DNA of 64,000 bases from Vicinamibacterales bacterium (GTDB lineage: Bacteria; Acidobacteriota; Vicinamibacteria; Vicinamibacterales; UBA2999), in contig DASWZV010000065.1 of NCBI GenBank assembly GCA_036407095.1, positions 27,262 to 91,261 on the forward strand. Direction: 5' to 3'. The translations under genes and the position numbers were made by a program. Below are positions 5,143-45,447 of this stretch, in pieces; within the stretch, counting starts at the first letter, position 1, and every line of letters begins with the position of its first letter. The notes under the pieces were generated by a model. That model was given only the letters and a program-made list of their open reading frames with translations, had not been told where the DNA came from and did not search any database.

Positions 5143-6414
5143 TTACACCGTCCGTCCGCGCTCGCCTGATGTGACGGGAACCGATCCGGCCGCCACGCTT
5201 TCGGCCTGGCAGTCAGTCGTCGCGGCGCGCGTGTCCGTCCGCCGGAGTTTCCGTCCGGCAATCTTGTTGTGAATGCTTTCGAGTGGGCCTGGTCCAGGGC
5301 GGCCCAGTCTTCGTTCGAGCGCGGAGAGCGGCGACAGTTCCCCGGAAAGGATCTGCAGGGCCCATGCGCTGTCGATTCGAGCCTGTGCCTCTTCGTTCGC
5401 TCCCGCAGCCTCGTCGCTGTCCAATCGCGCGCTCACGACGAACACCTTTCCGCTGAGCTCGCGCAGCTCGAGCACGTGACCCGACCGCTCCAGGTCCTGT
5501 TCCTCGGTGTCGAAGCGATGGACGAAATGGACGTCGTGCGCTGCTCGCGAGCCTTCGTCGCTGGGAGTCGGAGTCTCGGAATGGCCGTTGGCCGATTCGA
5601 GCCGCTCGATCAGCGATTCGACCGCTTTCAGCATCTGCGACCACGTCTCCTGCTGGCCCACTGAGCTGGTCTCTCCCTGAAGACGTGTGTCGAGCTCTTC
5701 CCAGACCTTTGCGAACGCCTCCGTAGCAGACTCCCGTGCAGCGAACATCGCCAGCGGCTTCCGGTGAACTGTCATCTGCTCGACGACGCTCGCGTAGGGG
5801 ATTTGTGCACGCATGAAGATCTGCGGGTTTGCTGCCGACCATTCGGTGGCGTGCCGATGCAGCGTCTTTCGGCGATCGACCATGCTGAAGAACGCCGCGA
5901 CCTTGCACCGTGTCTCTGAACGGTCGGCCCACTGGATCAGATGTGCGAGCGTTCGCAACGAGAGCACGGTGGGGATCGTGGGCACGATGATGGCATCAGC
6001 CGCTGCGAAGATCCCCTCGATCAACAGCGAGAAGCCTGCCGGGCAGTCGAGAAACACCACGTCGAAGTCGCGGCCGAGCGTCTCCAGAAGTGACGTCACC
6101 GAGCGTTCAGGTTTGCCAATCGAATCGAGAAGCCGCTCGAACTTCCGGTAGGCGAAGTCTGCCGGCAGTAAATGCAGGTTGTTGTAATCAGTCTCTCTGA
6201 TGGCCGCGCCGAGCGCATGGCCGTCCTCGAGGCTCTTCTTGCCGAACCCTTCGACATGCGGCTGCACTCGGAACGCAAACGTTGCGGCTCCCTGTGGGTC
6301 GAGATCCCATAACAACGTCCGCGCTCCTGCTGCCGCGGCGAGATACGACAGGTTGACCGCGCCGGTTGTTTTCCCGACCCCGCCTTTCATGTTGTAGATG
6401 GCAACGGTCTTCAT
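5143..6414 (-). CDS. ParA/MinD-family P-loop ATPase with a ~170-aa C-terminal extension
   Basis: Deviant Walker A: MKTVAIYNMKGGVGKTTGAVNLSY. Also DLDPQGAAT and DVVFLDCPAG. The start was moved to the internal ATG at 6414, which forms an ATGA overlap with the stop of the upstream CHAD gene. Confidence 0.85.
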   Translation of the reverse strand: MKTVAIYNMKGGVGKTTGAVNLSYLAAAAGARTLLWDLDPQGAATFAFRVQPHVEGFGKKSLEDGHALGAAIRETDYNNLHLLPADFAYRKFERLLDSIGKPERSVTSLLETLGRDFDVVFLDCPAGFSLLIEGIFAAADAIIVPTIPTVLSLRTLAHLIQWADRSETRCKVAAFFSMVDRRKTLHRHATEWSAANPQIFMRAQIPYASVVEQMTVHRKPLAMFAARESATEAFAKVWEELDTRLQGETSSVGQQETWSQMLKAVESLIERLESANGHSETPTPSDEGSRAAHDVHFVHRFDTEEQDLERSGHVLELRELSGKVFVVSARLDSDEAAGANEEAQARIDSAWALQILSGELSPLSALERRLGRPGPGPLESIHNKIAGRKLRRTDTRAATTDCQAESVAAGSVPVTSGERGRTV

Positions 6415-8003
6415 CGCGCTCGCTCCTCTGACTTCGATCGCCTGAACGCGCGCCGGCACGCCGTCCGTGTCTCAGGGGCCCGAAAGCGTTCGAGTGTCGC
6501 GACGACCTCGTCGCGCAACCGTTCCCGACGCTGGCAGCTCTGCTCGACAAGCCGCCCGAGCGCGAGCAGGGCGCCAGGCGGGCCACCAGCGGCGCCCAGC
6601 TCGAGCCCGCAGTTCAGCAGCCGCTTTTCCTGCACTTCGGCGTCGTTGAAGTCGCCGAGTACTCGCTGCAGCTTCTTCACGGCGCCAACGACGCACCCCA
6701 GATCGGCGGCATCGCAAAACGCTGGCGTGACGTCGATCAGATAGCGCAGCTTCTTCGCATCGATGCGGATTTCGTGGAGTCGCGCTGCCGATGTCTGGCC
6801 GTCGATGATCCTGGCGGTGTCGGCGATTCGTTGGCTCAGTCGCCACGCCCGCCTCGCAACGACATGTGCCAGACGGTCTCCCGCGTTGACCGCTTCGGGT
6901 GTGGTCAACACCGGCCGTTGCAGAAATGCCTTCCAGTCTGAAATGAGACGTCGATACCGCTGGCTGTCCAGCGCTTCGATGAGCCGGTCGTGTTCCTGCT
7001 GCTGGGCCTGAGTGAGGATCTCCCGCAGCACCTGCATGTCGGCAGCGGAAAATTCGGCGCCACGTTCTCTGAGTGCCAGGACGAGTACGTCCAGGTCGCG
7101 AGGCGCACCAGTCAAACGTCCGATCCACGAGAACTCCGTCGAGAAGTGCTCGACCGCCTCTGCTGGGAACACGCGTCGGATCTGACCGAGGAGCGAGCGC
7201 GTTCGCCTCACGGTCACACGAAAATCGTGGAGGAATTCCGTGTCCAGATTGGCGCGGAGGCCAGGTTCGTTGGCTTCGAGAATGCCGACGAGCGCCAGAT
7301 GAATCTGCCGCGCTCCGATGTCTGCGCGGACCGTCGATGCGAGATCCACGCGAGGCGACGATACGTCGCCCCGCATCGGCGCGCCAGCCCCCGACAGCAT
7401 CACGTCAAGCGAACCCTCAGGGCACGGCTGAACGCCGGGACGACTCTCGATCACCGGCACGAGTCGCGAATAGGTGTCCTCGTACCCGCGCAGTGCCGTC
7501 AATGTGACCATCGTCGGCAACGGGCGCCACGCAGCTCGTGGCGACGGCAGCCGGGCCTGGCCAGACGCAATCCGGAGACGTGCCACGGTCTTGCCGCGAT
7601 CGTCGAGCACTTCGAGCAGCGATCCGTACTCCTCGGCGTCGGCCTGTTCGAGAAGCCGCCGCGGACCGATGACCGAGGCCAGCGTTTGCTGCAGTCGCCC
7701 GGTGGGAAAGTCCCACGCAAAATTCGCCGGCTGCTTCAACCGGACCTTCAAGTGGCTTGAAGTCCCGCGCGTCTGCCACGCCACCGTGGAGTCGTCGGCG
7801 CCGCCGCGCGTCAGGCGGGCGCCGGCCCGACGGACGCGCTCGTCGAAGGTGTCGAGGACGGTGAACCGGTGCCGGGCAATCGCATGATGCCGGGTCGGCA
7901 GGAGCGCCTGCAGGCTCCTCGTAATGGCCTCTCCTGAGACTTCTCGTGGAACGACGTAAACCGATTCGGTTGCGGCAGCCACACCGTGCTTCATTTCCGT
8001 CAT
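6411..8003 (-). CDS. CYTH-like N-terminal domain + CHAD domain protein
   Basis: CHAD helices with conserved basic/His motifs: HDFRVTVRRTRSLL, LHEIRIDAKKLRYLIDV and LGDFNDAEVQ. The N-terminal ~200 aa has the CYTH-like pattern FTVLDTFDERVRRAGARLTR...WQTRG...LKVRLKQP. A clean ExExK motif is not visible. Confidence 0.8.
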   Translation of the reverse strand: MTEMKHGVAAATESVYVVPREVSGEAITRSLQALLPTRHHAIARHRFTVLDTFDERVRRAGARLTRGGADDSTVAWQTRGTSSHLKVRLKQPANFAWDFPTGRLQQTLASVIGPRRLLEQADAEEYGSLLEVLDDRGKTVARLRIASGQARLPSPRAAWRPLPTMVTLTALRGYEDTYSRLVPVIESRPGVQPCPEGSLDVMLSGAGAPMRGDVSSPRVDLASTVRADIGARQIHLALVGILEANEPGLRANLDTEFLHDFRVTVRRTRSLLGQIRRVFPAEAVEHFSTEFSWIGRLTGAPRDLDVLVLALRERGAEFSAADMQVLREILTQAQQQEHDRLIEALDSQRYRRLISDWKAFLQRPVLTTPEAVNAGDRLAHVVARRAWRLSQRIADTARIIDGQTSAARLHEIRIDAKKLRYLIDVTPAFCDAADLGCVVGAVKKLQRVLGDFNDAEVQEKRLLNCGLELGAAGGPPGALLALGRLVEQSCQRRERLRDEVVATLERFRAPETRTACRRAFRRSKSEERAR

Positions 8004-8006
8004 CGC

Positions 8007-8411
8007 TCACGAGTTCAGTTGGACGTCGAGGTGATGGATCAGCCGCTGCAGTTCTTCGCGCAGACAGTCCGCTGCGTCGGGAATGCGCATCCAGCGTCGC
8101 CGCCGCACGTCATCCTCGAGCCAACGGTCCGCGACGTTCGTGACGCGCATGGCGAAAACATCAACCCGCCGGCGATCGTTACCCTTGACGTGGTGGTACC
8201 ACCCGAGTGGTTTCCGCCACACCACGCCGCGCAGTCCGGCTTCTTCCTCGGCTTCCCGGATCGCCGCGTCGCGTGGCCGCTCGCCCTCGTACACAGACCC
8301 TTTCGGCACGATCCAGCCCTTCCCTCCGGACGTCGTCACGAGGGCCACCTCGACGCGCTCGTTGCGGATCCGATACGGGATCACGGCAGCCTGCTGAAGT
8401 ACACGCGGCAT
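8007..8411 (-). CDS. Nudix hydrolase
   Basis: Nudix box: GKGWIVPKGSVYEGERPRDAAIREAEEEAGLRG. The start was trimmed to MPRVLQQAAVIPYR at 8411. Only 3 nt separate its stop from the CHAD gene start. Confidence 0.8.
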   Translation of the reverse strand: MPRVLQQAAVIPYRIRNERVEVALVTTSGGKGWIVPKGSVYEGERPRDAAIREAEEEAGLRGVVWRKPLGWYHHVKGNDRRRVDVFAMRVTNVADRWLEDDVRRRRWMRIPDAADCLREELQRLIHHLDVQLNS

Positions 8412-8623
8412 CTGTCCTCCAGTCGCGGTTTCAGAACTGGGTGCTGGGAGCTCGGGTTCTGAGGGTTTGAACAGAAAGTAACAAAGTCGCGTTGGATGAA
8501 CAAGAGGCTTCAATGAATGGTGAGTCGCCAAACGAGATTCGATGCAACTACATGAACGTGAGGGCGACGATGGCACGAGCACGAACGGTATCGGACGGTT
8601 CACCGTCTAAGCCGGCGTCCACC

Positions 8624-11050
8624 ATGACTTCCTTCCTTCACGACCTCCGATATGCGGTCCGTTCGCTGTTCAGCAGTCCCGCTTTCGCGATCGTCGCCGC
8701 GCTGACGCTGGCGCTCGGGGTTGGCGCCAACACGGCGATCTTCAGCGTGCTGCAAGCGGTCGTCCTGCGCGACCTGCCGTACCACGATCCAGGCCGCATT
8801 GCGGTCATGTGGACGTGGAACCGGCAACAGAATCTTTCCGACGGTTCCTCCTACTTGAACTTCCGCGACTGGAAGGCGCAGAGCCGCGAGTTCGAGCAGA
8901 TGGCCGCCTATCTGCGTCCCGAGTTCACCCGCGGGACGTTGACCAGTGACGGCGAACCAGAGCGCGTCAACGTCGGACTGGTCGGGCCGGATTTCTTCGA
9001 GCTGCTGGGCACGGCACCCATCGCTGGCCGCGCGTTCACCGCCGACGACTTCAAGGAACAGTCGACGGCCGTTCTCATCAGCTACGGCCTCTGGCAGCAG
9101 CGCTTCGGCGGCGATCCCAAGACAATCGGCCGGACGATTCAAGTGGACGGGGCCGGTGTGGAACTGATCGGAGTGATGCCCCCCGGCTTCGAGCTGCCGA
9201 CCGCGGGGGTGCAGTTGTGGCGCCCGCTCTTCTTCGGATCGAACTGGCAGCAGCCAAACAGCCGCGGCGCGGACGCGTTGATCGTACTCGGTCGACTCAG
9301 GCCGGGCGCGACGATCACGTCGGCGCGAACCGAGATGGATGCCATTGCCGCGCGTCTGCGAACCGAGTACCCGACCAGCAACGCGAGCTTCGGCGTTACC
9401 ACGGACGCGCTCGTGGACCGCGTGATCGGCCCCACGACGGAGCGGTCGCTCTGGCTCCTCTTTGGCTCCGTCGGATTCGTCCTCCTCATCGCGTGCGCCA
9501 ACGTCGCGAATCTGATGCTCGCGCGGGTCACGGCCCGCAGTCGTGAGTTTTCGCTCCGAACAGCCCTCGGCGCGAGCCGGATGCGGCTCATCAGACAAGC
9601 GCTCGCGGAAAACGTCGTGCTGTCGCTGCTCGCCGGCACCATCGGCGGGCTCTTTGCCTGGCTCGGAATGCTTGCTCTTCGCACGTGGGCAGCCGGCGTG
9701 CTGCCCCGGGCCAACACGATCGTTCTCGATGCGCGCGTGTTGTCATTCGCGTTGATGGCATCGCTCGGCTGCGGACTGATTGCTGGTCTGCTGCCCGCGC
9801 TCCAACTATCGATTGGAAGCACGGCCAACGCGCTTCGCGACGCCGGGCCGCGCCTGCTCGGCGGACGCAGCGGAAGACGACTGCACCAGGGTCTAGTGGT
9901 GACAGAGATCGCGCTCGCGGTCATCCTGCTCTCGGGAGCGGGTTTGCTGATTCGCAGCTTGGTTCGCGTGCAGTCCACGGATCGTGGGTTCGATTCCGCG
10001 AACGTGCTCCTGCTCCAGATCGATCTACCCAGTACCTACAACGACCGTCCGAAGGTCGCGGCCTTCTTCACCGACGCCTTGCAGCGCATCCGCGCGCTGC
10101 CGGGAGTCTTCGCAGCGGGCGCCATCAGCGACTTCTTCATCCATCGGCAACCAGACTACCGGATCGCGCTCGAGGGGCAGCCGCCGCGGCGGCCGTCCGA
10201 TGCGTCGCCGCCGCTCACCGAGGACAATGTGGTCCCCGGTTACTTCGAAGCAATGCGCATCCCGCTGCTGCGCGGTCGTCTGCTCGAGGAGCGCGACCTT
10301 GCGCCTAATGCCCCGCCCGTCGTGGTCATCAACGACGAGATGGCGCGCCGGTTCTGGCCGGGTGACGATCCGGTCGGCAAGCGGTTCAAGTACGGACTCG
10401 ATCCGGCCGCGAATTTCCCGTGGAAGACCGTCGTCGGCGTCGTGGCAAACCAAAGGAGGCAGCGGCTCGACGAGGCCGCGATCCCGTACATGTTCCAACC
10501 GGGAGTAATTCCCCAGATGGACATCGCGGTGCGCACGACCGGCGACCCCGAAGCGCTGCGCGCGGCCATTCGCGATCAGTTGCAGGCGCTCGATCCCGCG
10601 GCGCCGCCTTACGGCATCGTCACCGTCGAACAGCGCATGCAGCAGAGCGTCGCACTGCGCCGTTTCCAGACGCTGATGCTCGCGACGCTGGCGGCCGTGG
10701 CACTGCTGCTGGCCGTGGTTGGCGCGTACGGCATCATTCATCGATCGGTCGCGTCGCGGACGCAGGAGATCGGCATCCGCACCGCACTCGGCGCGAGTGC
10801 CTCGTCGGTGTTGCGGATGGTGCTGGCGAGCGGTCTCTCGCTCGGCTTGATCGGGCTCGCGCTCGGTTTCGTGGGATCGCTGGCCCTCAGCCGCACGGTC
10901 GCGTCGTTTCTCTATCAAACGAGCCCGCTCGATCCGCTCACATACGTGGCCGTGACCGTTGTGTTGTTCGCGGTCACCGCCGCGGCGACGCTGACCCCGG
11001 CGCGTCGAGCCGCCCGCATCGACCCGATGGCGGCGCTGCGCGAACAATAG
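8624..11050 (+). CDS. ADOP-family permease (duplicated MacB_PCD + FtsX). No adjacent ATPase.
   Basis: The N-terminus LRYAVRSLFSSPAFAIVAALTLALGVGANTAIFSV is typical of the family. There are two FtsX-like 3-TM blocks and the C-terminus is PARRAARIDPMAALREQ. The start was trimmed to MTSFLHD. Confidence 0.85.
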   Translation: MTSFLHDLRYAVRSLFSSPAFAIVAALTLALGVGANTAIFSVLQAVVLRDLPYHDPGRIAVMWTWNRQQNLSDGSSYLNFRDWKAQSREFEQMAAYLRPEFTRGTLTSDGEPERVNVGLVGPDFFELLGTAPIAGRAFTADDFKEQSTAVLISYGLWQQRFGGDPKTIGRTIQVDGAGVELIGVMPPGFELPTAGVQLWRPLFFGSNWQQPNSRGADALIVLGRLRPGATITSARTEMDAIAARLRTEYPTSNASFGVTTDALVDRVIGPTTERSLWLLFGSVGFVLLIACANVANLMLARVTARSREFSLRTALGASRMRLIRQALAENVVLSLLAGTIGGLFAWLGMLALRTWAAGVLPRANTIVLDARVLSFALMASLGCGLIAGLLPALQLSIGSTANALRDAGPRLLGGRSGRRLHQGLVVTEIALAVILLSGAGLLIRSLVRVQSTDRGFDSANVLLLQIDLPSTYNDRPKVAAFFTDALQRIRALPGVFAAGAISDFFIHRQPDYRIALEGQPPRRPSDASPPLTEDNVVPGYFEAMRIPLLRGRLLEERDLAPNAPPVVVINDEMARRFWPGDDPVGKRFKYGLDPAANFPWKTVVGVVANQRRQRLDEAAIPYMFQPGVIPQMDIAVRTTGDPEALRAAIRDQLQALDPAAPPYGIVTVEQRMQQSVALRRFQTLMLATLAAVALLLAVVGAYGIIHRSVASRTQEIGIRTALGASASSVLRMVLASGLSLGLIGLALGFVGSLALSRTVASFLYQTSPLDPLTYVAVTVVLFAVTAAATLTPARRAARIDPMAALREQ

Positions 11051-11316: not shown

Positions 11317-12315
11317 ATGAATAGAACCTCGATCGCGACAGCCGTGAGATGTCTTTCGTACGCCGGTGTGATGGCACTCGTGTCAATCCGGGCGGTTGCG
11401 CAAACGCCTGCGCCCCCCACCCGATCCGCTCTACCGCATGAGGCTGCGCCGGGTGCTTCCATCCTGGCCACGCCGATCGGGCATGAAGTGAACGTCAGCT
11501 TTGGCGGCTACCGCTATAACGAGCCCGGCACGCAAAGCATCTCGATTCACGGCGGCAAGATCGGGGGCGGGTACACGGGCACGCTGGCGCTCAACGAGCG
11601 CCAGCGCTGGTTTGCTCAGGCCGATGTCCGCGGCACGGTCGGTAACACCACATACGATGGCTGGTGTTCACCTTTTCTGATCACGCCCGACAGTTCCTCG
11701 CCAAACGGCTACGCGCTCGATATCGGTGATGCGTCGCCATGCAGCGAGGCCGGCGACAAAGACTGGTATGTGGAAGCCCGGGGTCTCGTCGGCAAAGATT
11801 TCATCGGCCACGCATGGGGCCTGTCGCCAGAAACCGGATTAGGCTTCCGCCACCTGTCGAACGGCATCGGCGGGGCCGCCGGATATCGCACCGACGACTA
11901 CCTCTATCTTCCGCTCGGTCTCACCGCGCGCACCCGGGCTGCTTCGCACGGGCTCAGCTTCAACGTCGAATACGATCGCCTGCTCCATGGCTGGCAAACG
12001 ACCCGCGATTCGTACCTGGGTGGCGGCGATATTCCACCAACGGCGACGGCGCCTGGTTTCACCATCGATGGCTTCAGCGATATCTCGTTCGCCCAGCATG
12101 AGGGGTGGGGCCTGCGCGCAAGCGGGAGATATCAGGTGACCAGGCACTGGTCGGTTGAGCCGTCGTATGTCCATTGGAGCATCAACTCCTCGCCGGTGAA
12201 CTACGAGACGGCGACGTTTACAGTCAACGACGTGACGGCGGAACAGCAGCTCGGCGCCTACGAGCCCGTGAATACCACGAACGAGTTCGTCGTGAAACTC
12301 GGTTTCAGGTTCTGA
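11317..12315 (+). CDS. Outer-membrane beta-barrel protein (putative)
   Basis: Signal peptide ending AVAQTP. Alternating Gly/aromatic-rich strands. C-terminal FVVKLGFRF with a terminal Phe. Confidence 0.65.
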   Translation: MNRTSIATAVRCLSYAGVMALVSIRAVAQTPAPPTRSALPHEAAPGASILATPIGHEVNVSFGGYRYNEPGTQSISIHGGKIGGGYTGTLALNERQRWFAQADVRGTVGNTTYDGWCSPFLITPDSSSPNGYALDIGDASPCSEAGDKDWYVEARGLVGKDFIGHAWGLSPETGLGFRHLSNGIGGAAGYRTDDYLYLPLGLTARTRAASHGLSFNVEYDRLLHGWQTTRDSYLGGGDIPPTATAPGFTIDGFSDISFAQHEGWGLRASGRYQVTRHWSVEPSYVHWSINSSPVNYETATFTVNDVTAEQQLGAYEPVNTTNEFVVKLGFRF

Positions 12316-12331
12316 AGAAGACACTGTTCGT

Positions 12332-12712
12332 CTAGCTGTCCTCGGACCGTGGTGAACTCGCCCTGGGAAACGGTGCGCTGTCGAAGTAGATGTCGAACGA
12401 GACGATCAAGCCATCCCGTACGCCGAACACCTCAGCCACATCGCAGGCGAACGGCCGCCCCGACGGCGGGTGCAGTTCGTAACGAGTCAGCGCGCAGGCT
12501 CGTGTGGCTTCGACGATCAGATCTTTGACGTCGACGGCACGAATCATCGAGTAGAAGCCTTTGGTCGCCTCGACGACTGCCGCTCGTCCGCTGATACGTC
12601 TCATCGGAGTGGTGAAGCTGGTGAAGACGACGTCATCGGATAGCGACGCGTCCCAGTTCCTCTTCTGCTGCAACGCGTCGAAGTAGCCCTGAACAATCTC
12701 TCTGGTTGTCAT
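12332..12712 (-). CDS. SnoaL-like / NTF2-fold protein
   Basis: 126 aa. The N-terminal TTREIVQGYFDALQQKRNWDA is typical of the SnoaL_2 family. Confidence 0.7.
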   Translation of the reverse strand: MTTREIVQGYFDALQQKRNWDASLSDDVVFTSFTTPMRRISGRAAVVEATKGFYSMIRAVDVKDLIVEATRACALTRYELHPPSGRPFACDVAEVFGVRDGLIVSFDIYFDSAPFPRASSPRSEDS

Positions 12713-12970
12713 GTGTCGCTCCGTCGGACTTGCGCCTCACGCAGGCGCGAAGCCCATGCGTCGCCTCCGACGCGGTGATGAACGTAGAAGAGCCGGGTTG
12801 GATCGTACGTCGCCTTGATGCACCGCAGACGGTCACCTATCCTCGTGCGAAGCGTCTACGATGCGCCCCTTCCACCGCCCACTAGTTCAGCCGTTGAGAT
12901 CTCCTCGGCCACGAATGCAGGCGAGGCACCGATCGGGCCAGCGTTTCCCATCCACGAGTCGAGGTTCGAC

Positions 12971-14371
12971 ATGGAGTTGCTCACACACTATTTTGCTTCT
13001 GACGCCTTCATGCCCCATGGGTATTGCTATCTGTGGAAGCCAGGCATGGTCTGGCTGCACGTCATCTCCGATTCGCTGATTGCCCTCGCGTATCTGTCGA
13101 TTCCGCTCACGCTCGTCTACTTCGTTCGAAAGCGGCATGACCTCCCCTTTCACTGGATGTTTCTGTGCTTCGGCGCCTTCATCGTGTCCTGCGGTGCCAC
13201 CCACGCCATGGAAGTGTGGAATCTGTGGCACGCGGACTACTGGTTTGCAGGGGCGGTGAAGGTTGTGACGGCCCTCGCGTCAGTCGCAACCGCGCTTCTG
13301 CTGATTCCGCTGGTTCCCGTGGCGCTCGCCATTCCAAGTCCGAGCGACCTCCGGCGATCGGAACAGAAGTTTCGCGGGCTTCTCGAGGCGGCCCCTGATG
13401 CGATTGTGATCGTCAACCAGCGAGGCGAAATTGCCCTCGTCAATGCACAGGCCGAACGGCTGTTCGGGTACCGTCGAGAGCAGCTGCTGAATCAGCCTAT
13501 TGAGACTGTCATTCCGCAGCGCTTGCGGAGCAGCCACGTTGCCCGCCGCACCGGTTTCCTCACCGATCCGCGTGTGCGCGCGATGGGCGCGGGCCTGGAG
13601 CTGTTTGGCCTGCGCAAGGACGGGACTGAGTTTCCAGTGGAGATCAGTCTCAGCCCGCTTGAAACGCAGGAAGGAATTCTCGTCTCGAGTGCGATCCGCG
13701 ACATCACGGTGCGCAAGCAGACGGAGGAGGCACTGGCCAGTGTCAACCGCCGGTTGATCGAGGCACAGGAGAAGGAACGTGCCCGCATTGCCAGAGACCT
13801 GCACGATCATACGAACCAGCGTCTCTCGCTCCTGGCCATCGGCTTGGAGGAAGTCAAACGAGAGCTGCCGACGCAGGCCTCGGTCGTGGGCGAACGGCTG
13901 GACGAATTGCGAGCGCAGACTATGGAGGTCTTGAGCGATCTCCAGGCCTTGTCGCACGAGTTGCACACCTCAAAACTGGAGTATGTCGGACTCGTTGCGG
14001 CGGCCCGCGGATTCTGCAGAGAGTTCAGCGAGCAGCGGAAACTGAAGGTCAACTTCGAGAGCCACGATCTTCCACTCATCCTCCCCTCCGACGTCTCGCT
14101 CTGTCTCTTCAGGGTTCTGCAGGAAGCCTTGCACAACGCGGCTCAACACAGTGGAGCCGCCGAGTTCGACGTCGCGTTGTGGGGCACGCCGCAAGAGATT
14201 CATCTCCGGGTTCGCGACGCCGGTGCGGGCTTCGACGTCGACGCCGCGAAAAAGGGTGAAGGGCTCGGCCTCGTCAGCATGCAAGAAAGGATGCAACTGG
14301 TCAAAGGCAGGTTGTCGATTGAGTCCCGCCCGCAACACGGTTCAACGATTCATGCCCGCGTGCCGTGTTGA
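12971..14371 (+). CDS. Sensor histidine kinase: ethylene-binding-domain-like 3-TM N-terminus, PAS, HisKA_3, HATPase_c
   Basis: EBD-like region: [55 protein letters not shown]. The PAS region begins near [19 protein letters not shown]-box: [22 protein letters not shown] boxes: [18 protein letters not shown] and [11 protein letters not shown]. The start was trimmed to MELLTHYF. Confidence 0.85.
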
Positions 14372-15985
14372 CGACAGAGATCTTGCCTTCAGTACTTCGC
14401 CGAACATATTCCGTCCCAGGATCGTCGACGCGGTCGCGAGCGCGCCCGACAACGCGCCCATCACGCCACACGTCCCGACGTCCTGGCCAGTCAGAAACAG
14501 ATTGCCAACAGCCGTGCGAGGCCCGAGGTCGCGCGACTGAAAGCGCATCGGCGTGTGCGCGAGGCCGTACATCTCGCCATGTGGTGCACCCGCGAAGTGT
14601 TGCGTGGACAGCGGCGTCGAGAACTCCGAGCGTATGACCGCGCCAGAGACAGCCGGCACGTGCCGATACAGCTCGCGCAGAAGACGTTCGGCCAGTCGCG
14701 CCTTGATCGCCGCGTACGCATCGGGTCGTCGTTTCCAATCTGATCCGGCCCACTGCGCGAAGTGTTTATACGACACCGCCGTCAGGACTTCGATCGTGTG
14801 CCGATTGGAGTAGCGCGCCGCAAACGATGGATCCTTCGCAGATGGAAAAGAGATGTACAGAAACGGGAATGGGGCCTCGAGGTCTCGGTCGAAGGCCGAC
14901 AGATTGCCATCGAAATCAAGACTCGGGTGGATCCACAGGTTTGCGGCATCCAGCGTCGGCGCCGCAGAGGGGAACGTCGCCCCGACATAGAGACACAGAT
15001 GTCCACCCGCGGGGGGGAGACGTCTTGTCCGCTCTGCAGCGCGTCTTGCCGCCTCCGGCGCACCATCCCCTAACAAGCGATCCATCGTCGTCCGAATTCC
15101 GGCGTCGCTGACGATGAGATTCGCGCGGAACTCCCGGCCATCGGCCATACGAACGCCAACGGCGCGGACACCATCGACCAGGATTCGGTCGACCTCGGCG
15201 CTCACCGCCACGGTCCCTCCGGATCGCTCGATGACGGGGAGCACTCCTGCGGCGATTTGGCTCGCGCCGCCGATCGGATACGCGGCACCGTCGAAATAGT
15301 GCTCGGCGATCACGGCGTGCATGCCAAAGCTGCTCTGCCCGGGCGGAAGGCCATAGTCACCCCATTGAGCAGTCAGCACTCCTCTCAGCTCTCGACTGGC
15401 TCCAAGAGCATCCAAGACGTCAGCCGTCGTTCGCCTCGCAAATTTCAAGAACGGCGCGCGCAGACCGCGGCCGAAAATGCTGCCCAGGAAACGGGGCAGT
15501 GATTTCTCGACGTAGTAAAACGGAACACGCTGCACACACTGCTGGATCGTCGTGAAGTAGCGATCGATCGCAGTCCGCTCACGAGGGAAGGTCTGGACGA
15601 GCGCCTCACGCAGACGATCCCGGCCACTCACGTAGTCGAAGCGGAGCCCGTCGATGTTCACACGGTCGTAGACATCGGGCATCGCGTTCCACACGAGACG
15701 GCCTTCAGTCAAGTACTCAAAAAGGGCGTGCGCCGGCGAGCCCGGCTTGTGGACCTGGCCGACGTAGTGCACGCCCACGTCCCACTCGAAGCCGGGACGA
15801 TGGAATACATGAGTGAATCCACCGGCCGTGTAGTGCTTCTCCAGGACCAGCACGCGCCGGTGGGCCGCCTTGGCCAGGAAGGCGGCGATCCCGAGTCCGC
15901 CGATACCCGAGCCGATCACGATGGCATCAAATGATCCGCTGCTGCGCAGTTGGTTGTAGGGTGTGCCGACAAAGCGACTCGTCAT
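14342..15985 (-). CDS. FAD/NAD(P)-dependent oxidoreductase of the phytoene-desaturase/CrtI-like family
   Basis: Dinucleotide-binding motif [38 protein letters not shown]. The 3' end overlaps the convergent kinase gene by 30 nt. Confidence 0.8.
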
Positions 15986-16170
15986 CTCCCGACGTTCCTC
16001 GCTCGAGTGTCCGCGATGTCATCACGTCGGCGGGGTCCTGATTCCTTCCAACCCACGGTCACGGGAATGAGAAAGGTGAGCGCGTAGTACAGATACACAT
16101 CTAACTTGTAGTAACCATCGGCCGGCTTCAAGGCCTTGACGATGAAGAGGTAGACGAGTGGTCGGCTCAT
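15982..16170 (-). CDS. Small hydrophobic protein translationally coupled to the oxidoreductase (putative)
   Basis: 62-aa ORF. Its stop forms an ATGA overlap with the oxidoreductase start at 15982-15985. G/C is enriched at third codon positions in the first half. Confidence 0.4.
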   Translation of the reverse strand: MSRPLVYLFIVKALKPADGYYKLDVYLYYALTFLIPVTVGWKESGPRRRDDIADTRARNVGR

Positions 16171-16851
16171 CGCACGTCCCTCTTTCCATCACCGGATTCC
16201 GCAGTTGCGAACGCAGGAATCCTGCCGGAGTCAGATGCGAGAAATGGCCGGTCATTCGGGGGCCGACGTTCCATCAGTCGCGAGGAAAAACCAACGTGAT
16301 GGTGAATTTCGCGCAGTTGCGACTCGCGCCGGATGCGTGAGCGTGCCGTCCAGAAGCGTGGGTTTTTGACCTCCTTCGTTCAATGCGCCACCAAACCCGC
16401 CTTCAGTTCTTCAAGGGGCTGTTCGATGGCCGCGGCATGATATGGAGCGAACGCACCGTCACGACGGAAGCGGCGTACGGCACCTGCGTCGGGCAGCGCA
16501 TGTGCGGGGATCGTGATGACCTGAGCGGATCACGGCTGTTCTTCCTGATCGACTGGAACCCGTGCGCGAAAGCGCCTGTCTCGATTCGTCAAGAAGAGCG
16601 ACTCGATCGCCGCGTTGCGCTGGGCTGCGGATCTCGAATACGGGCATCGCGCGTTTCTCGAAGCCGGCGGCGAACGGTTGATTGACAGCGCGCTGGAACG
16701 CACCGCTGCCGGACAGCTGCGATATGGAGCCAGACTCGACGAAGTACTGGGCAACAGGCCGCGCTCGCGTTTCTGCAAGCCGTACTGCGCATCACGAGCG
16801 AAGGGATGCAACAACGTCCGCTCTGTACCAACGACGCGGGCGCGCCTACCG

Positions 16852-17349
16852 TTACTTCAACGAAAGCTGGCTGCTCGCGGTCGCGTCGATGGACCTGGCC
16901 AACCGTGCACTGATGAAGCACGAGCCGTTCGCGACGGCGTCCATTGCGAAGAACAGTTCGCGTCCGGCCTCCGACTTCAGGAGGTAGCCGCCGGCCGCGG
17001 TCGCCAACGCCGCGTCGACGATGTCGGGGGACTGATGTTCGCTGACGAAGAGGATTCTGGAGTCACGGTGAAGCGAGAGGATTTGTCGAGCTGCCTGGAT
17101 GCCGTCAAGTCGCGGCAACCCGATATCGAGCAGAATGAGATCCAGTTCGAGCGCCTGAGCTTTCTGAACCGCCTCGACCCCATCCACGGCTTCGCCGACG
17201 ATTCGCCAATGAGGAGATGTCTGGATGGCTGAACGAATGTGGCGTCGCCAAGGTTCGTAGTCGTCGACGACCAGAACCCGGTACACGACTGACCTGCCGC
17301 TTGGTATTTCCAAGGGTGCATCTTGAGGGAGACAGCCACGACGAGTCAA
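16852..17349 (-). CDS. Response regulator, receiver domain only (no recognisable output domain)
   Basis: RVLVVDDYEPWR, LILLDIGLPRLDG, ILFVSEH and GGYLLKSEAG. The protein is 165 aa. Confidence 0.8.
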   Translation of the reverse strand: MTRRGCLPQDAPLEIPSGRSVVYRVLVVDDYEPWRRHIRSAIQTSPHWRIVGEAVDGVEAVQKAQALELDLILLDIGLPRLDGIQAARQILSLHRDSRILFVSEHQSPDIVDAALATAAGGYLLKSEAGRELFFAMDAVANGSCFISARLARSIDATASSQLSLK

Positions 17350-35409: not shown

Positions 35410-36990
35410 TCAGCGACGCTCTTCTGGGGGTTGCCGACTCTCTTCGGGAGGTTGTCGACTCTCCTCTGCGGGTTGTCGACTCTCCTCTGGGGGTTGTGAG
35501 GGACCGGCTGCAACAGTGCCCCGGATGGTGACGCCCAACTCGTCTACGCCTTGCTTGAACAGATCCAGAATCCGTCCGCTGGTGCGGAACTCTTCGAGGA
35601 TCGCCGCTCGGCGGCTGGTGCGTAGATCGCTGATCACGTACGCGAGCGTCGTCGCCATCACCGACCCCTCTTCGGTTCGTGTCGCCTCGAAACGGTTCTG
35701 GAACGCCCGCAGCGTCGTTTCGAATGACGCCTCGTGCCACCGCTCGATACCGCTCTCAACGTGCAGGAAGTCGTTGAGCACCGCAGCATATTGCGGCGTC
35801 GGTGGACGATGCCAGAACGAGACGTCGGGGCCGAACGCCTTTACGTAGATGGGCAGGTAGAGATTTGCATGCGCGGGAACTCGCTTGCCGAGCGCCGGGT
35901 TGAAGCGTTTCACGACATCGAGCTTGAGACCGCTCCGGGCGGTGATGTCGACCGCAGGGCGCGCTGTCGACAGCCGCATCGCGAAAATCGCCGACTGCTG
36001 GTACTCGGCGGTCAATCGCTTCACGTTGACCATGTTGCCGAACACCATTTCGGCATACAGAGACGATTTGTATCCGTACGTCCGGAACAGGTCCGAATAT
36101 CGCTCAGCGGAAATCTCCCGAAGACGCCCAGCGAAGTCCGACCCGAGGAAGTACTGCTCGCGCGAGCCGACACCACCGAGTCGCTCGCCGTTGATCACCG
36201 TCCGACCCACGTTGACGCCGCCGGCGTGATGTTCCGAGAGCGCTGGAATGTAGCTCCCGTACATCGTGGCGAGGATCGTCAGGTAGGCAGCGCAGTACGG
36301 CGCCTGGGTCGTCTGGTTGTAGGCCTCGAGCACGGCCGGCGACAGTTTGTTCAGAAACGCCCAGTTGCTGCTCAGGAACTGACAGAAGCCGACGGCTCGC
36401 GCGCGGGAGCGGGCCCGCCCATCGAGACCTGATTCAAGGATGGCCTGGGCCAATCCTATTTCTGCCGGCACGCCAAACCGCTCGTAGATCTTCCCCCATT
36501 CCTGGAGGAAACCGCCGTAACGCCGCGCGTTCGGCGTGAGGAACTCCCCGCGGGTCGGGTTGTGCACCAGCGGGCCGGTCACCGGCGTGAGCAGACGAAC
36601 GACCTCGTCGCGCCGCGCATCCAAATCCCTGGGAAGTGTTCGTCCATTCAGGAGCTCATTCAGCCCCTGCTCTTCCCAGACACCATCTCGCGCCCAGTCG
36701 CCGGCGTTTGGAAAGATCGCCAATAACCGTCCGTCCTGGGCGCTGCCGAACGCGATTCGTCCGTCGGGAATCGTGAAAATGTACCGCCAGAAGGGGTATT
36801 CCGGCCGGAACATCTGAATCGCTGCGAGATCCTGGTCCAGACGGGCGCGGGAGTACTCGGTGGCGGCCTGGGCGGCAGCCGGTTCCGAAGCGTTCGCGAG
36901 CGGAAGGCCTGTGGGAGTCCCTTGTGCGCGAACCGACGATCCGACGCTCACAAGCGTCGCGAGTCCGAGCAGCAGGCTCAGATGTTTCAT
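35410..36990 (-). CDS. Secreted protein with an SLT-like lytic transglycosylase motif and C-terminal heptad peptide repeats
   Basis: Signal peptide MKHLSLLLGLATLVSVGSSVRAQG. LAQAILESGLDGRARSRARAVGFCQFL has the E-S...G.xQ pattern. The C-terminus is PPEESRQPAEESRQPPEESRQPPEERR. Confidence 0.7.
   Translation of the reverse strand: MKHLSLLLGLATLVSVGSSVRAQGTPTGLPLANASEPAAAQAATEYSRARLDQDLAAIQMFRPEYPFWRYIFTIPDGRIAFGSAQDGRLLAIFPNAGDWARDGVWEEQGLNELLNGRTLPRDLDARRDEVVRLLTPVTGPLVHNPTRGEFLTPNARRYGGFLQEWGKIYERFGVPAEIGLAQAILESGLDGRARSRARAVGFCQFLSSNWAFLNKLSPAVLEAYNQTTQAPYCAAYLTILATMYGSYIPALSEHHAGGVNVGRTVINGERLGGVGSREQYFLGSDFAGRLREISAERYSDLFRTYGYKSSLYAEMVFGNMVNVKRLTAEYQQSAIFAMRLSTARPAVDITARSGLKLDVVKRFNPALGKRVPAHANLYLPIYVKAFGPDVSFWHRPPTPQYAAVLNDFLHVESGIERWHEASFETTLRAFQNRFEATRTEEGSVMATTLAYVISDLRTSRRAAILEEFRTSGRILDLFKQGVDELGVTIRGTVAAGPSQPPEESRQPAEESRQPPEESRQPPEERR
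35414..35500. repeat. About 4 tandem copies of a 21-bp unit inside the 3' end of the SLT-like CDS
   Basis: GGTTGCCGACTCTCTTCGGGA (35429-49), GGTTGTCGACTCTCCTCTGCG (35450-70) and GGTTGTCGACTCTCCTCTGGG (35471-91), plus partial flanking copies. Each unit encodes the 7-aa repeat EESRQPP. Confidence 0.8.
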
Positions 36991-37822: not shown

Positions 37823-38401
37823 ATGGACATGGCTTCCTCACGCTCGCAGATCTCTGCGGTCCTTGCGGATTGGGCGAATCGGGACAAGGCGGACCGCGAT
37901 CGACTTCTGCCGCTCCTGTACGAAGAGCTGCGCCGACTCGCGCACCACTACATGCGAGGTGAGCGCGCCGGACACACGCTCCAGACGACTGCACTCGTGA
38001 ACGAGGTTTACGTCAAGCTGGCCGGTCTCGAGCGGATGCGGTGGCGTGACCGCTCGCACTTCATGGCCACCGTTGCGACGCTGATGCGCCGCATCCTCGT
38101 CGACTATGCGAGGAGCCGCCTGCGCGACAAGCGGGGCGGCGATCTGTCAATCACCTCGTTCGATGAAGAGCAGCACGACTGCTCCGATGAGAGACGTGGG
38201 CTCACGCTGCTCGCCCTCGATGAGGCGCTGACGATGCTCGCGGTGGTCGATTCGCGCCAGGCGCAGATCGTCGAGATGCGATTCTTCGGCGGTCTGACCG
38301 TCGAAGAGACGGGACAGGCGCTCGGGGTATCGGTGGCAACCGTCAAACGTGATTGGGCCACCGCCAAGGCGTGGCTGTATCGCGCGGTCAGCCAGCCGTG
38401 A
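37823..38401 (+). CDS. ECF-type sigma-70 factor (TIGR02999-like, kinase-associated group)
   Basis: LLPLLYEELRRLAHHYMRGERAGHTLQTTALVNEVYVKL (region 2). LTVEETGQALGVSVATVKRDWATAKAWL (region 4). Confidence 0.85.
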   Translation: MDMASSRSQISAVLADWANRDKADRDRLLPLLYEELRRLAHHYMRGERAGHTLQTTALVNEVYVKLAGLERMRWRDRSHFMATVATLMRRILVDYARSRLRDKRGGDLSITSFDEEQHDCSDERRGLTLLALDEALTMLAVVDSRQAQIVEMRFFGGLTVEETGQALGVSVATVKRDWATAKAWLYRAVSQP

Positions 38402-38416
38402 CAGAGTGAGGCGGTC

Positions 38417-40939
38417 GTGCACTCCGAACAGTGGGCACTAATCAAGGACCTGCTCGCAACCGCATTGGCGTTGCCTGCCAACGCGCGCCCTGGCTATCTC
38501 TCGCACGCGTGTGCCGGCGACATCTCATTGCAGCGCGAGGTGGAAGATCTGCTCGCGGCATCCAATCGGACGGATGACTTTCTCGAACAGCGAGCGAACG
38601 ATCTGCTCACGGAACAGGCAGGGCCGGAGGCGGATCTCGCCGGACGATCGATCGGGCACTACAACGTCGTGTCTCGAATCGGCAGCGGAGCAACCGGCGA
38701 CGTCTATCTCGCCCGCGACGATCGGCTGGATCGCCGCGTCGCGTTGAAGCGATTGGCGATTCACCTCGCGCTGGAACCGCAAAATCTGTTTCGGTTCCGC
38801 ACCGAAGCGCGCGCCGCATCGGGCCTGAATCATCCCAACATCCTGATCATTCACGACGTTGGCGATCTCGACGGCCGGCCGTTCATCGTCAGCGAATTCG
38901 TGGAAGGCGAAACGCTGCGCGCACGCCTGACGCGCGGGCGGCTTGCAGTCCACGAAGCCGTGCGCATCGCGGCACAGATCGCCGACGCCCTGGCCGCCGC
39001 GCATGAGCGCGGGATCCTGCACCGCGACATCAAGCCCGAGAACGTGATGGTGAGGCCGGATGGGCACGTGAAGATTCTCGACTTCGGTCTGGCGAAGCTG
39101 CTGCAGCCGGCCGAACCGCACGAGGCGTCAGTCGTGCGAACGCTGCCGGGTCTGCTGCTCGGGACTCCGCGCTACATGTCGCCTGAACAGGCACGTGGCC
39201 TCGACGTCGACGCGCGCTCCGACATCTGGAGCGTCGGTGTCGTTCTCTATGAGATGCTCGCGGCTCGTCCCCCGTTTGAGGGCGGGACACCGAGCGACGT
39301 CATCGCCGCCATTCTGCACTTCGAGCCGCAGCCGCTCGATGACGATCTGGCGATCCCGCGAGCGGTCACCGACATCCTGACTCGAACGCTCGAGAAGGAT
39401 CTCGGGCGCAGGTTTGGAAGCGTTCGGGAGCTGTACGCGGCGCTCGAGTGCGTGCGCACCACGCTCGAGTCGGGTGGAACGCTTCCCACGAGCGCGTCCG
39501 AATCGCCTGGACCAGCAGCCTCCGGCGTGCTCGTAGGCCGGGTGCGATTGATGGTGCTGCCGTTTCGACTGCTCGCGTCTGATCCCGGCCTCGATTTCCT
39601 GCGGTTCAGCCTCGCGGACGCCATCGTCTCCGCTCTCAGCGAGATCTCCGCGCTCACTGTCAGGTCCAGCCTGCTGGCCAGCCGGTTCGGTGCCGGCGAA
39701 ATCGATTTGACTCGCATAGCTGCGGAAGCCGATGTCAACGTGGTGTTGAACGGCACGATCATGCCGTCTGGCGATCGTGTTCGCGTCGGCAGCGAACTGA
39801 TCGAGGCCCCCGGCGGCCGTATCGTCTGGGCGACTTCGTCGGAAACAGAGGCCGGCGATTTCTTCCAACTGCAGGATCGCGTCGTCACCCGGATCGTCGA
39901 GTCTCTTGCCAGGCCGTTGACCGTGCCCGATCAGATCGCAGTACGGCGCGACGTTCCGTCGAGCACCGCCGCGTACGAGTCGTACCTGCGAGCCAACGAG
40001 CTGGCGCGGCACCCGGCAGGATTCGAGGAGGCGCTCGGTCTGTATCGGAAGTGCCTCGATGCCGACCCTCGGTTCGCGCCGGCCTGGGCGCGCCTCGGCC
40101 GTCTCTACCGGGTGATCGGCAAGTACAGCGGTCAGGACGTTGCCCGATGGTTCCGGCAGGCCGACGAGGCATTCGAGCGGGCGATGTCGCTCAACCCCGA
40201 GCTCTCGGTCGCGCAGAACAACTACGCGTATCTGCAGGTGGATATGGGCCGGGCAGTCGCCTCGATGGTCAGGCTGCTGACGAGGGCGAGGCGACGTCCA
40301 ACTGATGCCGACCTCTACGCAGGCCTGGTCCACGCCTGCCGCTATGCGGGGCTGCTCGATGCGTCCGCCGCTGCACATCGATGCGCGATCGCGATCGATC
40401 CGTTGATCCCGACCACAGCGCTGCAGACGTATTTCATGCGTGGGGAGCTGGACGTCGCGCTCGACGAAAGCCGAAAGATCGCCGGTGGCTCGCTGCGGGC
40501 GATGGTGCTGTCGCTTCTCGACCGTGAAGCCGAGGCGATCGCGTATCTGAAAGAACAGGAGCAGCGTCTTTCGCACTTCACGATTCGCCAATACAGCGTC
40601 GCGCTTCGTACACTGCTCGAAGGCGATCGGCAGGAATGCCTTGCGGCAATCGATCATCTGCTGACGATCGACTTCCCTGATCCGGAAGGGCTGTACTGGC
40701 TCGCTCGCTACCTCTCCAGGCTCGACGACCCGCGCGCGCAGGAGACGCTCGACGCAGCCATCGATGGGGGCTTCAACGCCGTGCGGATGATGCGCTGGGA
40801 TCCGTGGCTGGAGCGGCTCCGTGGCACGCCATCGTTTGACGTCACTGCGCGCAAGGCGGGCGTGCAGTATCGTGCCGCAGTGTCTGCGTTCGTCGACGCG
40901 GGAGGCACCCACGTTCTGGGTCCGGCCAGCGCGGCCTGA
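38417..40939 (+). CDS. Ser/Thr protein kinase with a C-terminal TolB-N-like/TPR-like region
   Basis: IGSGATGDVYLARD...VALKRL, HRDIKPENVMV, DFGLAKL and GTPRYMSPEQ. The start lies 16 nt downstream of the sigma gene stop. Confidence 0.9.
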   Translation: MHSEQWALIKDLLATALALPANARPGYLSHACAGDISLQREVEDLLAASNRTDDFLEQRANDLLTEQAGPEADLAGRSIGHYNVVSRIGSGATGDVYLARDDRLDRRVALKRLAIHLALEPQNLFRFRTEARAASGLNHPNILIIHDVGDLDGRPFIVSEFVEGETLRARLTRGRLAVHEAVRIAAQIADALAAAHERGILHRDIKPENVMVRPDGHVKILDFGLAKLLQPAEPHEASVVRTLPGLLLGTPRYMSPEQARGLDVDARSDIWSVGVVLYEMLAARPPFEGGTPSDVIAAILHFEPQPLDDDLAIPRAVTDILTRTLEKDLGRRFGSVRELYAALECVRTTLESGGTLPTSASESPGPAASGVLVGRVRLMVLPFRLLASDPGLDFLRFSLADAIVSALSEISALTVRSSLLASRFGAGEIDLTRIAAEADVNVVLNGTIMPSGDRVRVGSELIEAPGGRIVWATSSETEAGDFFQLQDRVVTRIVESLARPLTVPDQIAVRRDVPSSTAAYESYLRANELARHPAGFEEALGLYRKCLDADPRFAPAWARLGRLYRVIGKYSGQDVARWFRQADEAFERAMSLNPELSVAQNNYAYLQVDMGRAVASMVRLLTRARRRPTDADLYAGLVHACRYAGLLDASAAAHRCAIAIDPLIPTTALQTYFMRGELDVALDESRKIAGGSLRAMVLSLLDREAEAIAYLKEQEQRLSHFTIRQYSVALRTLLEGDRQECLAAIDHLLTIDFPDPEGLYWLARYLSRLDDPRAQETLDAAIDGGFNAVRMMRWDPWLERLRGTPSFDVTARKAGVQYRAAVSAFVDAGGTHVLGPASAA

Positions 40940-45434: not shown

Positions 45435-45447
45435 AAAGGAGCGACCG

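Follow-up and report, generated by a model that had tools for sequence, protein, structure and literature searches.

A candidate ethylene receptor kinase with a FixL-like PAS domain and a single-domain receiver in a Vicinamibacterales genome

Introduction

Ethylene is common in soils and rhizospheres. Experimental proof that bacteria perceive it exists only for a cyanobacterium and, since 2025, for Azospirillum, and the locus described here raises the question of whether such perception extends to the Acidobacteriota, an abundant and poorly cultured soil phylum. The DNA analysed (the window) is a stretch of 64,000 nucleotides from a Vicinamibacterales bacterium (assembly GCA_036407095.1, contig DASWZV010000065.1, positions 27,262 to 91,261 of the forward strand). 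It contains a gene for a 466-residue sensor histidine kinase, the N-terminal part of which had been aligned by eye, in an original prediction, with the ethylene-binding domain (EBD) of Arabidopsis ETR1. Here, profile searches, alignments, structure prediction and comparison of related loci are used to ask what this kinase senses and how it signals. The conclusion, drawn from sequence comparison, is that it is probably (about 75%) a functional bacterial ethylene receptor of the same kind as ETR1, SynEtr1 and AzoEtr1, in a Vicinamibacterales-like acidobacterium.

Ethylene-binding domain

The likeness to the ETR1 EBD that had been seen by eye is borne out by the curated Pfam hidden Markov model (HMM) for this domain, ETR1_N (PF25487), which matches the kinase at E=7.2e-41, and by alignment at the level of single residues. 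MAFFT was used to align the window EBD with AzoEtr1 of the soil proteobacterium Azospirillum brasilense (525 aa, recovered from the Sp7 plasmid record, L001:2980-4557), a Rhodovastum homologue and the N-terminus of ETR1. The numbering of the ETR1 sequence used reproduces D25, Y32, I35, P36, I62, C65, H69, K91 and A102, and an independent anchor is provided by the database-derived AzoEtr1, which has D35, C75, H79 and K98 as published. In this alignment the window EBD is 42% identical to AzoEtr1, 47% to the Rhodovastum homologue and 39% to ETR1.

The list of seven binding residues is cited here through PMC11819568 and PMC6682694. All seven have identical counterparts in the window, as had been claimed: D34, Y41, I44, P45, I71, C74 and H78 correspond to ETR1 D25, Y32, I35, P36, I62, C65 and H69, and all are in invariant columns. 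The alignment is ungapped through helices 1 and 2, and the positional equivalence of the Cys/His pair (C74/H78 with C65/H69) is thereby confirmed. The residues associated with signal output are also aligned, K97 with K91, A40 with A31 and A108 with A102, the last two ETR1 positions being the sites of the etr1-3 and etr1-2 alleles. A pairing of D25 with K91, and its role in receptor output, has been described (PMC11819568).

With residues 1-130 as the query, HMMER found 8,820 clusters (50% identity) at E<=1e-3 and 2,158 at E<=1e-30 in a full scan of 1.84 billion representative proteins. In the top 149 representatives at 50% clustering, K97 is present without exception and each of the seven binding residues is found in 146-148. 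On these counts, purifying selection on the seven residues is strong throughout the family. The result also bears on the possibility that the resemblance to ETR1 is a chance or compositional one between hydrophobic helices, reflecting the generic hydrophobicity of transmembrane segments and nothing more. This can be regarded as already refuted, its probability being negligible: the HMM match is full length (E=7e-41), the family has 2,158 clusters at the stricter threshold, and the polar functional residues are positionally identical.

The EBD was modelled by AlphaFold2 (AF2) from 78 sequences with a predicted local distance difference test score (pLDDT) of 87.3, as three long helices followed by a linker helix. 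Basic residues are found at the junction of helices 1 and 2 (R53, K54 and R55, with H56), and there are four Lys/Arg residues after helix 3, which by the positive-inside rule fit a topology with the N-terminus outside. For a solved EBD-like structure, a sequence search of the PDB gave nothing below E=1, and a fold search with the EBD model gave a best match of E=1.4. Because no EBD structure has been solved, bacterial homologues are reasonable structural targets. A compact receptor of 466 aa with a simple partner also suits biochemical work. Every in-silico test of membership places this domain among the ETR1-type EBDs.

Immediately before helix 1, and outside the Pfam envelope, is a further conserved motif, P15-H16-G17-x-C19-x-x-W22, which is predicted to be periplasmic. 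Its conservation is on a par with that of the ligand-binding residues, with H16 in 146, G17 in 149, C19 in 148 and W22 in 149 of the 149 representatives. C19 aligns with the Cys4/Cys6 region of ETR1, and AF2 models the motif as a hairpin of low confidence. Bacterial receptors have one N-terminal Cys, for which disulfide dimerisation has been proposed (PMC6682694), and a possible disulfide at this Cys is all that the literature considers. With its invariant His, Gly and Trp, the motif suggests a further role, for example as a periplasmic copper-acquisition site.

Kinase architecture

The peptide quoted in the original prediction is present at the positions assigned to it. The open frame runs without a break from 12815 to 14371 on the forward strand, with the kinase ATG at 12971. 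This start, giving a product of 466 aa, is also the call made by independent gene callers on a 1.07-Mb contig of JGI 3300036857 and on the Logan SRR11613032 assembly. Relatives of the kinase align from their own residues 1-3, in agreement with it, and there is a GAGG 6-9 nt upstream. The features of the kinase and of its putative partner are collected in Table 1.

Table 1. Coordinates of the kinase, its domains and candidate functional residues, and the genes that lie between it and its putative partner (positions in the window; aa, residues of the kinase).
Feature	Position	Strand	Details
Sensor histidine kinase gene, EBD-PAS-HisKA_3-HATPase_c	12971..14371	+	466 aa plus stop
N-terminal motif P15-H16-G17-x-C19-x-x-W22	13013..13036	+	predicted periplasmic, before helix 1
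Ethylene-binding domain, three transmembrane helices	13040..13330	+	helices aa 24-54, 61-86, 90-120
ETR1_N (PF25487)	aa 26-121		Pfam profile positions 2-97 of 97; E=7.2e-41; 138.8 bits vs cutoff 27
Candidate ligand/Cu(I) residues	D34 13070-13072; C74 13190-13192; H78 13202-13204; also Y41, I44, P45, I71	+	alignment with ETR1
Cytoplasmic PAS domain, FixL/DosP/FG214 type	13367..13720	+	Pfam PAS_9/PAS; NCBIfam FixL 2.4e-19, DosP 2.8e-12
Candidate haem-b residues	H189 13535-13537; M205 13583-13585	+	alignment with FG214, FixL
HisKA_3 dimerisation/phosphoacceptor domain	13775..13975	+	PF07730 E=1.2e-10
Predicted phosphoacceptor His278	13802-13804	+	within DLHD motif, aa 276-279; invariant in 17 orthologues
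HATPase_c catalytic domain	14105..14365	+	PF02518 E=9e-13
CrtI/carotenoid-isomerase-like FAD (flavin adenine dinucleotide) oxidoreductase	14342-15985	-	547 aa; within indel; 3' end overlaps kinase 3' end by 30 bp
Candidate cognate response regulator, stand-alone receiver, NarL/FixJ class	16852..17286	-	144 aa; PF00072 E=6e-20

Downstream of the EBD, Pfam identifies PAS (aa 133-250), HisKA_3 (269-335) and HATPase_c (379-465) domains, and no GAF domain is matched anywhere in the 466-aa kinase, all of which agrees with the layout originally described. The plant and cyanobacterial arrangement is EBD-GAF-HisKA, with or without a receiver. Since there is no GAF domain here and the dimerisation/phosphoacceptor (DHp) domain is HisKA_3 (PF07730), the kinase is not of the plant-type architecture, and resembles instead the EBD-PAS-kinase layout of AzoEtr1. 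The original prediction was therefore right that the layout differs from that of the GAF/HisKA receptors, but overstated its novelty, AzoEtr1 being an EBD-PAS-HisKA-HATPase protein with a single-domain receiver.

The H, N, G1 and G2 boxes are all intact. In HATPase_c, the N box is HNAAQH (containing N389), G1 is DAGAG (416-420) and G2 is GEGLG (429-433), with N389, D416, G418 and G420 invariant across the orthologues. For the kinase core the best NCBIfam match is MctS, which scores 140.7 against a cutoff of 700, and no NCBIfam equivalog reaches its cutoff. Because NCBIfam has no model for the N-terminal domain, public annotations name the relatives only as 'PAS domain S-box protein'. The full-length kinase was also modelled with AF2 (pLDDT 63), and this model was used only for placing secondary structure.

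Probable receiver partner

The 144-aa protein in Table 1 is the only receiver within the window. Its best NCBIfam matches are NarL (1.1e-21, residues 3-133 against NarL 8-138 of 216) and MctR, with UvrY also matched. The protein ends after the receiver and a linker, before any GerE helix-turn-helix (HTH), and has no output domain, so that it looks like a NarL-family regulator minus its GerE HTH. It retains the acidic pocket (DD), a candidate phospho-acceptor Asp (LLDIG) and the conserved Lys. No full-length NarL-type regulator (receiver plus GerE) was found in the 64-kb window. The kinase core is closest to MctS and the receiver to NarL and MctR, and the pair is therefore compatible at the family level.

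The related loci argue for the same pairing. In a sister genome with a 95%-identical kinase (loci L087 and L088), an orthologue of the receiver with 89.6% identity is located 60 bp past the kinase stop codon, in convergent orientation. The best non-orthologous relatives of the receiver adjoin related HisKA_3 kinases, including the neighbours at loci L085 and L086. The 144-aa receiver is thus the probable partner of the kinase.

In the window the two genes are separated by an indel of 2.5 kb (14367-16843; compare L087 7397-7480), representing either an insertion in the window or a deletion in the sister genome. A search for repeats at its borders, as marks of a mobile element, gave only short matches expected by chance. 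The indel carries the CrtI-like oxidoreductase and two small open reading frames. GeiEtr1 adjoins a lycopene cyclase gene (PMC6682694), and for this reason the CrtI-like protein was considered as a functional partner of the kinase. It was rejected: it is absent from the 95%-identical sister locus, and has one weak and distant counterpart in 88 loci.

Other kinases of the subfamily have different neighbours. At L085 (7680-8654) a protein combining a receiver with a MEDS domain adjoins the kinase, and at L086 (2420-4407) the EBD kinase is found behind a second, EBD-less PAS-PAS-HisKA_3 kinase together with a small receiver. These arrangements hint at branched or shared phosphorelays.

Proposed mechanism

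The case for an ethylene receptor is made by four observations: the domains are homologous, their key residues are equivalent, the catalytic motifs are intact, and the genes for kinase and receiver have stayed close to one another in relatives. That the site is loaded with Cu(I) and binds ethylene, in which direction the kinase responds, which protein is its partner and what the physiological output is are inferred from these. The three N-terminal transmembrane helices would form a Cu(I) site, in which C74 and H78 on helix 2 are positioned by D34 on helix 1. Ethylene would diffuse into the membrane and bind at this site, and the signal would be relayed via K97, helix 3 and the short linker helix to the cytoplasmic PAS domain, and from there to the HisKA_3/HATPase_c transmitter, which is predicted to autophosphorylate on H278. 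The phosphoryl group would then be transferred to the 144-aa NarL-class single-domain receiver. Lacking a DNA-binding domain, the receiver must act by contacts with other proteins or by shuttling phosphate. For ETR1, SynEtr1 and AzoEtr1 it has been argued that ethylene lowers kinase output (PMC11819568), and the same is expected here by analogy, following the logic of an inverse agonist.

Characterised homologues provide the functional background. AzoEtr1 binds ethylene and controls biofilm formation and root colonisation, as shown in 2025; its fragment 1-130 displays saturable 14C-ethylene binding, and D35A and C75A, which are equivalent to D34 and C74 here, were designed as non-binding mutants (PMC11819568). 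Ethylene binding is also seen in cyanobacterial EBDs with an identity to ETR1 of about 41-43% (PMC6682694).

Several points weigh against this reading. At the position of ETR1 P36 (P45 in the window, 13103-13105), the more remote half of the EBD-PAS-HisKA_3 subfamily, with relatives of 55-60% identity (P0149, P0151, P0153, P0154, P0157, P0168, P0173, P0174 and P0190), has Ser, and in these proteins ethylene binding may be altered or absent. In the window, the receiver gene is on the strand opposite to the kinase and 2.5 kb from it, and the pairing rests on synteny in relatives. A motif search of the 64-kb window for a copper ATPase or chaperone found neither, there being no DKTGT P-type ATPase motif, yet this is uninformative for a multi-megabase genome. 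Finally, the PAS domain may be a second or even the dominant input.

The loss of the P36-equivalent residue in some members of the subfamily also counts towards a different explanation, in which a true EBD homologue reports on copper availability, membrane redox or some other π-ligand of Cu(I) (other alkenes or alkynes, CO, isocyanides), or mainly anchors in the membrane, and dimerises, a kinase that is driven by its PAS domain. As is known from ETR1 pharmacology, Cu(I) sites of the ETR1 type accept other olefins and strained alkenes as well, and the extra invariant N-terminal His/Cys motif could be a metal-handling site. However, all the ETR1 ethylene-binding residues are retained and almost invariant, and a buried Asp, Cys and His would not be conserved in a domain that is no more than an anchor. 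Moreover, the tested EBDs of comparable similarity, namely those of ETR1, SynEtr1, Geitlerinema cells and AzoEtr1, all bind ethylene with high affinity (PMC11819568, PMC6682694). We consider this explanation unlikely, and retain that of an ethylene receptor.

PAS domain

In a search of the PDB with phmmer, the nearest solved relatives of the PAS domain are haem-b sensors without exception: FG214 (10jx; 1e-19, 38% identity), BjFixL (2.5e-16, 29%), RmFixL (1e-12) and EcDOS/DosP (2e-10 to about 1e-9). In a multiple alignment, H189 falls in the column of the proximal ligand (FG214 H156, FixL H200), and M205 corresponds to FG214 M172. The haem of FG214 has His156 as proximal ligand and His175 or Met172 as distal ligand, with M172 ligating the iron in the reduced crystal (bioRxiv 10.64898/2026.03.15.711900). 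The full-length model is of low confidence in this region (pLDDT below 50), and places H189 on the F-alpha helix (183-196) and M205 in the FG loop.

Other ligand-pocket positions are different. FG214 H159 and H175 correspond to R192 and G208 in the window PAS domain, and FixL R206, H214 and R220 to G, R and L (in our own numbering of the aligned BjFixL). Among 16 orthologues of the same architecture, H189 is kept in 11 and replaced in the other five (by Q, Q, N, Y and Y), and M205 is lost in four. In the wider family, the motif R-x2-H-x2-H-R...P-x2-R-x-M-G has its His in 345 and its Met in 319 of 440 copies. When 134 EBD representatives were chosen by their EBD alone, 49 were found to have this type of PAS domain directly after the EBD, and 15 of these retain both His and Met. 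The odds that the PAS domain binds haem are roughly even.

Haem binding would make the kinase a dual sensor of gas or redox state, in which haem b in the PAS domain is held by His189 and, displaceably, by Met205 on the distal side, and responds to O2, CO, NO or redox, the kinase integrating this signal with ethylene. This is held tentatively, at somewhat under even odds, and it extends the ethylene-receptor explanation and does not replace it. It is favoured by the exclusively haem-b nature of the nearest solved relatives and the matches to the NCBIfam FixL and DosP models, by the alignment of H189 and M205 with the FG214/FixL ligands and their placement in the model, and by the frequency of the His/Met motif in the family, including the 15 of 134 EBD representatives with both residues; SynEtr1, which senses ethylene and light (PMC6682694), is a precedent. 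The replacements of His189 (5/16) and losses of Met205 (4/16) in orthologues, the unconserved FG214 H159/H175 and FixL R206/H214/R220 positions, and the poor modelling of the PAS region all argue the other way. A complete two-gas sensor, in which membrane Cu(I)/ethylene and a cytoplasmic haem-PAS domain responding to O2, CO, NO or redox both feed one HisKA_3 kinase and its output-less receiver, is possible though rather doubtful.

If the PAS domain does bind haem, the kinase would be a natural integrator of two gases, and with a two-gas sensor soil Acidobacteriota could register ethylene and hypoxia jointly, much like plants under flooding. The combination of an EBD with a His/Met PAS domain recurs in roughly a tenth of the close EBD relatives.

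Comparison with known receptors and sensors

The closest characterised protein in design is AzoEtr1. In both proteins the EBD (42% identity) has three helices and contains all seven residues, the N-terminus has a single Cys, one PAS domain follows in the cytoplasm, and the kinase transmitter has no fused receiver. Their sizes are similar (525 against 466 aa), and AzoRR(etr1), the partner of AzoEtr1, is also a small receiver without an output domain (135 against 144 aa). AzoEtr1 differs in its DHp domain, which is HisKA (PF00512) rather than HisKA_3, and in its PAS domain, which is of the PAS_4 type, 18% identical and without the His/Met pair, whereas that of the window is FixL/FG214-like. The AzoEtr1 receiver is encoded on the same strand as its kinase, the two genes overlapping at the 3' end of the latter, whereas the NarL-class receiver of the window is convergent and separated by the indel. 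The phylum is also different. On these comparisons, the description that fits the window kinase best is that of an AzoEtr1-like receptor which differs in DHp class and in the type of its PAS domain.

Arabidopsis ETR1, the founder of PF25487, shares with the window kinase the three helices, an EBD of 39% identity with the seven residues and the equivalents of K91, A31 and A102, and the N-terminal Cys region, although it has two Cys there in place of one. After the EBD, ETR1 has GAF, HisKA and HATPase_c domains and a receiver fused to them; of these, the window kinase lacks the GAF domain and the receiver. Signalling by ETR1 runs mainly via CTR1 and does not depend on kinase activity. The cyanobacterial SynEtr1 (slr1212) and GeiEtr1/2 are, like the window kinase, bacterial EBD kinases with a single N-terminal Cys, and signal by phosphotransfer (PMC6682694), but their second sensor is a PAS/GAF cyanobacteriochrome and their DHp domain HisKA, in place of the one FixL-like PAS domain and HisKA_3 found here.

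Among haem sensors, BjFixL shares with the PAS domain of the window kinase 29% identity and the aligned proximal His, and the FixL/FixJ system also has a partner receiver of the NarL/FixJ class; a further point in common is a DIT-x-RK motif in the helix that connects the PAS domain to the kinase. FixL has no EBD, and its Arg206, His214 and Arg220 positions are those not conserved here. FG214, with a 38% identical PAS domain, is a one-component HTH protein with bis-His ligation.

Family size and distribution

The protein closest to the kinase that carries a name (95% identity) is from a metagenome-assembled genome of the Vicinamibacterales, phylum Acidobacteriota, which bears out the original guess of an Acidobacteria-like bacterium. 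The EBD was detected in about two dozen related loci from species-representative genomes, mostly Acidobacteriota, with a few from Verrucomicrobiota, Eremiobacterota-like genomes and Alphaproteobacteria; the sampling favours loci related to the query, and the acidobacterial majority is not an unbiased census. The relatives have one of two layouts. The window kinase belongs to a group of short proteins of about 470-520 aa (EBD-PAS-HisKA_3-HATPase). The second group, EBD-(PAS)n-HisKA-HATPase, has about 650-800 aa, and the kinase gene is usually followed immediately by that for a small receiver, as with AzoEtr1.

According to reviews, bacterial EBDs are found in 'many proteobacteria and cyanobacteria' and are joined to a variety of output domains (PMC7700396; PMC6682694). 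Among the papers that could be searched, none was found to link EBDs to Acidobacteria, which is consistent with the earlier statement that no acidobacterial EBD had been characterised. The accompanying description of EBD-like domains outside cyanobacteria as bioinformatic predictions needs a correction, as the domain now has its own Pfam family, with thousands of bacterial members. The family is known: it is curated in Pfam, a proteobacterial receptor of nearly the same architecture has been characterised, and its relatives number in the thousands. The window kinase is an expected member, and taken individually leaves current understanding unchanged. The points that appear to be undescribed are the abundance of the family in Acidobacteriota, the output through HisKA_3 and a NarL-class single-domain receiver, and the possible haem-PAS domain. 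With thousands of clusters, the family is far larger than the picture given in the reviews, and richer in Acidobacteriota. That an abundant and poorly cultured soil phylum carries putative receptors with every ligand-binding residue intact supports the view of ethylene as a general soil signal, beyond its role as a plant hormone.

Neighbouring genes

Two genes near the kinase are syntenic with it in the sister genome. One encodes a protein of 332 aa with no Pfam or NCBIfam match (11317-12315, forward strand), and the other a protein with the SnoaL_2 fold, divergent from the kinase (12332-12712, reverse strand). Further upstream, about 5 kb from the kinase, a multicopper oxidase is encoded in the sister genome (L087 1-739), and the equivalent place in the window (5143-11050) contains ParA-like, CHAD, NUDIX and MacB/FtsX genes, representing a second rearrangement between the two genomes.

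Elsewhere in the window there is a 526-aa protein with no family match (35410-36990, reverse strand) and, near it, a gene for an extracytoplasmic function (ECF) sigma factor adjoining that for an 840-aa Ser/Thr kinase (37823-40939) and a Planctomycete-type PSCyt/PSD multidomain protein with an HXXSHH partner (42966-46764, forward strand).

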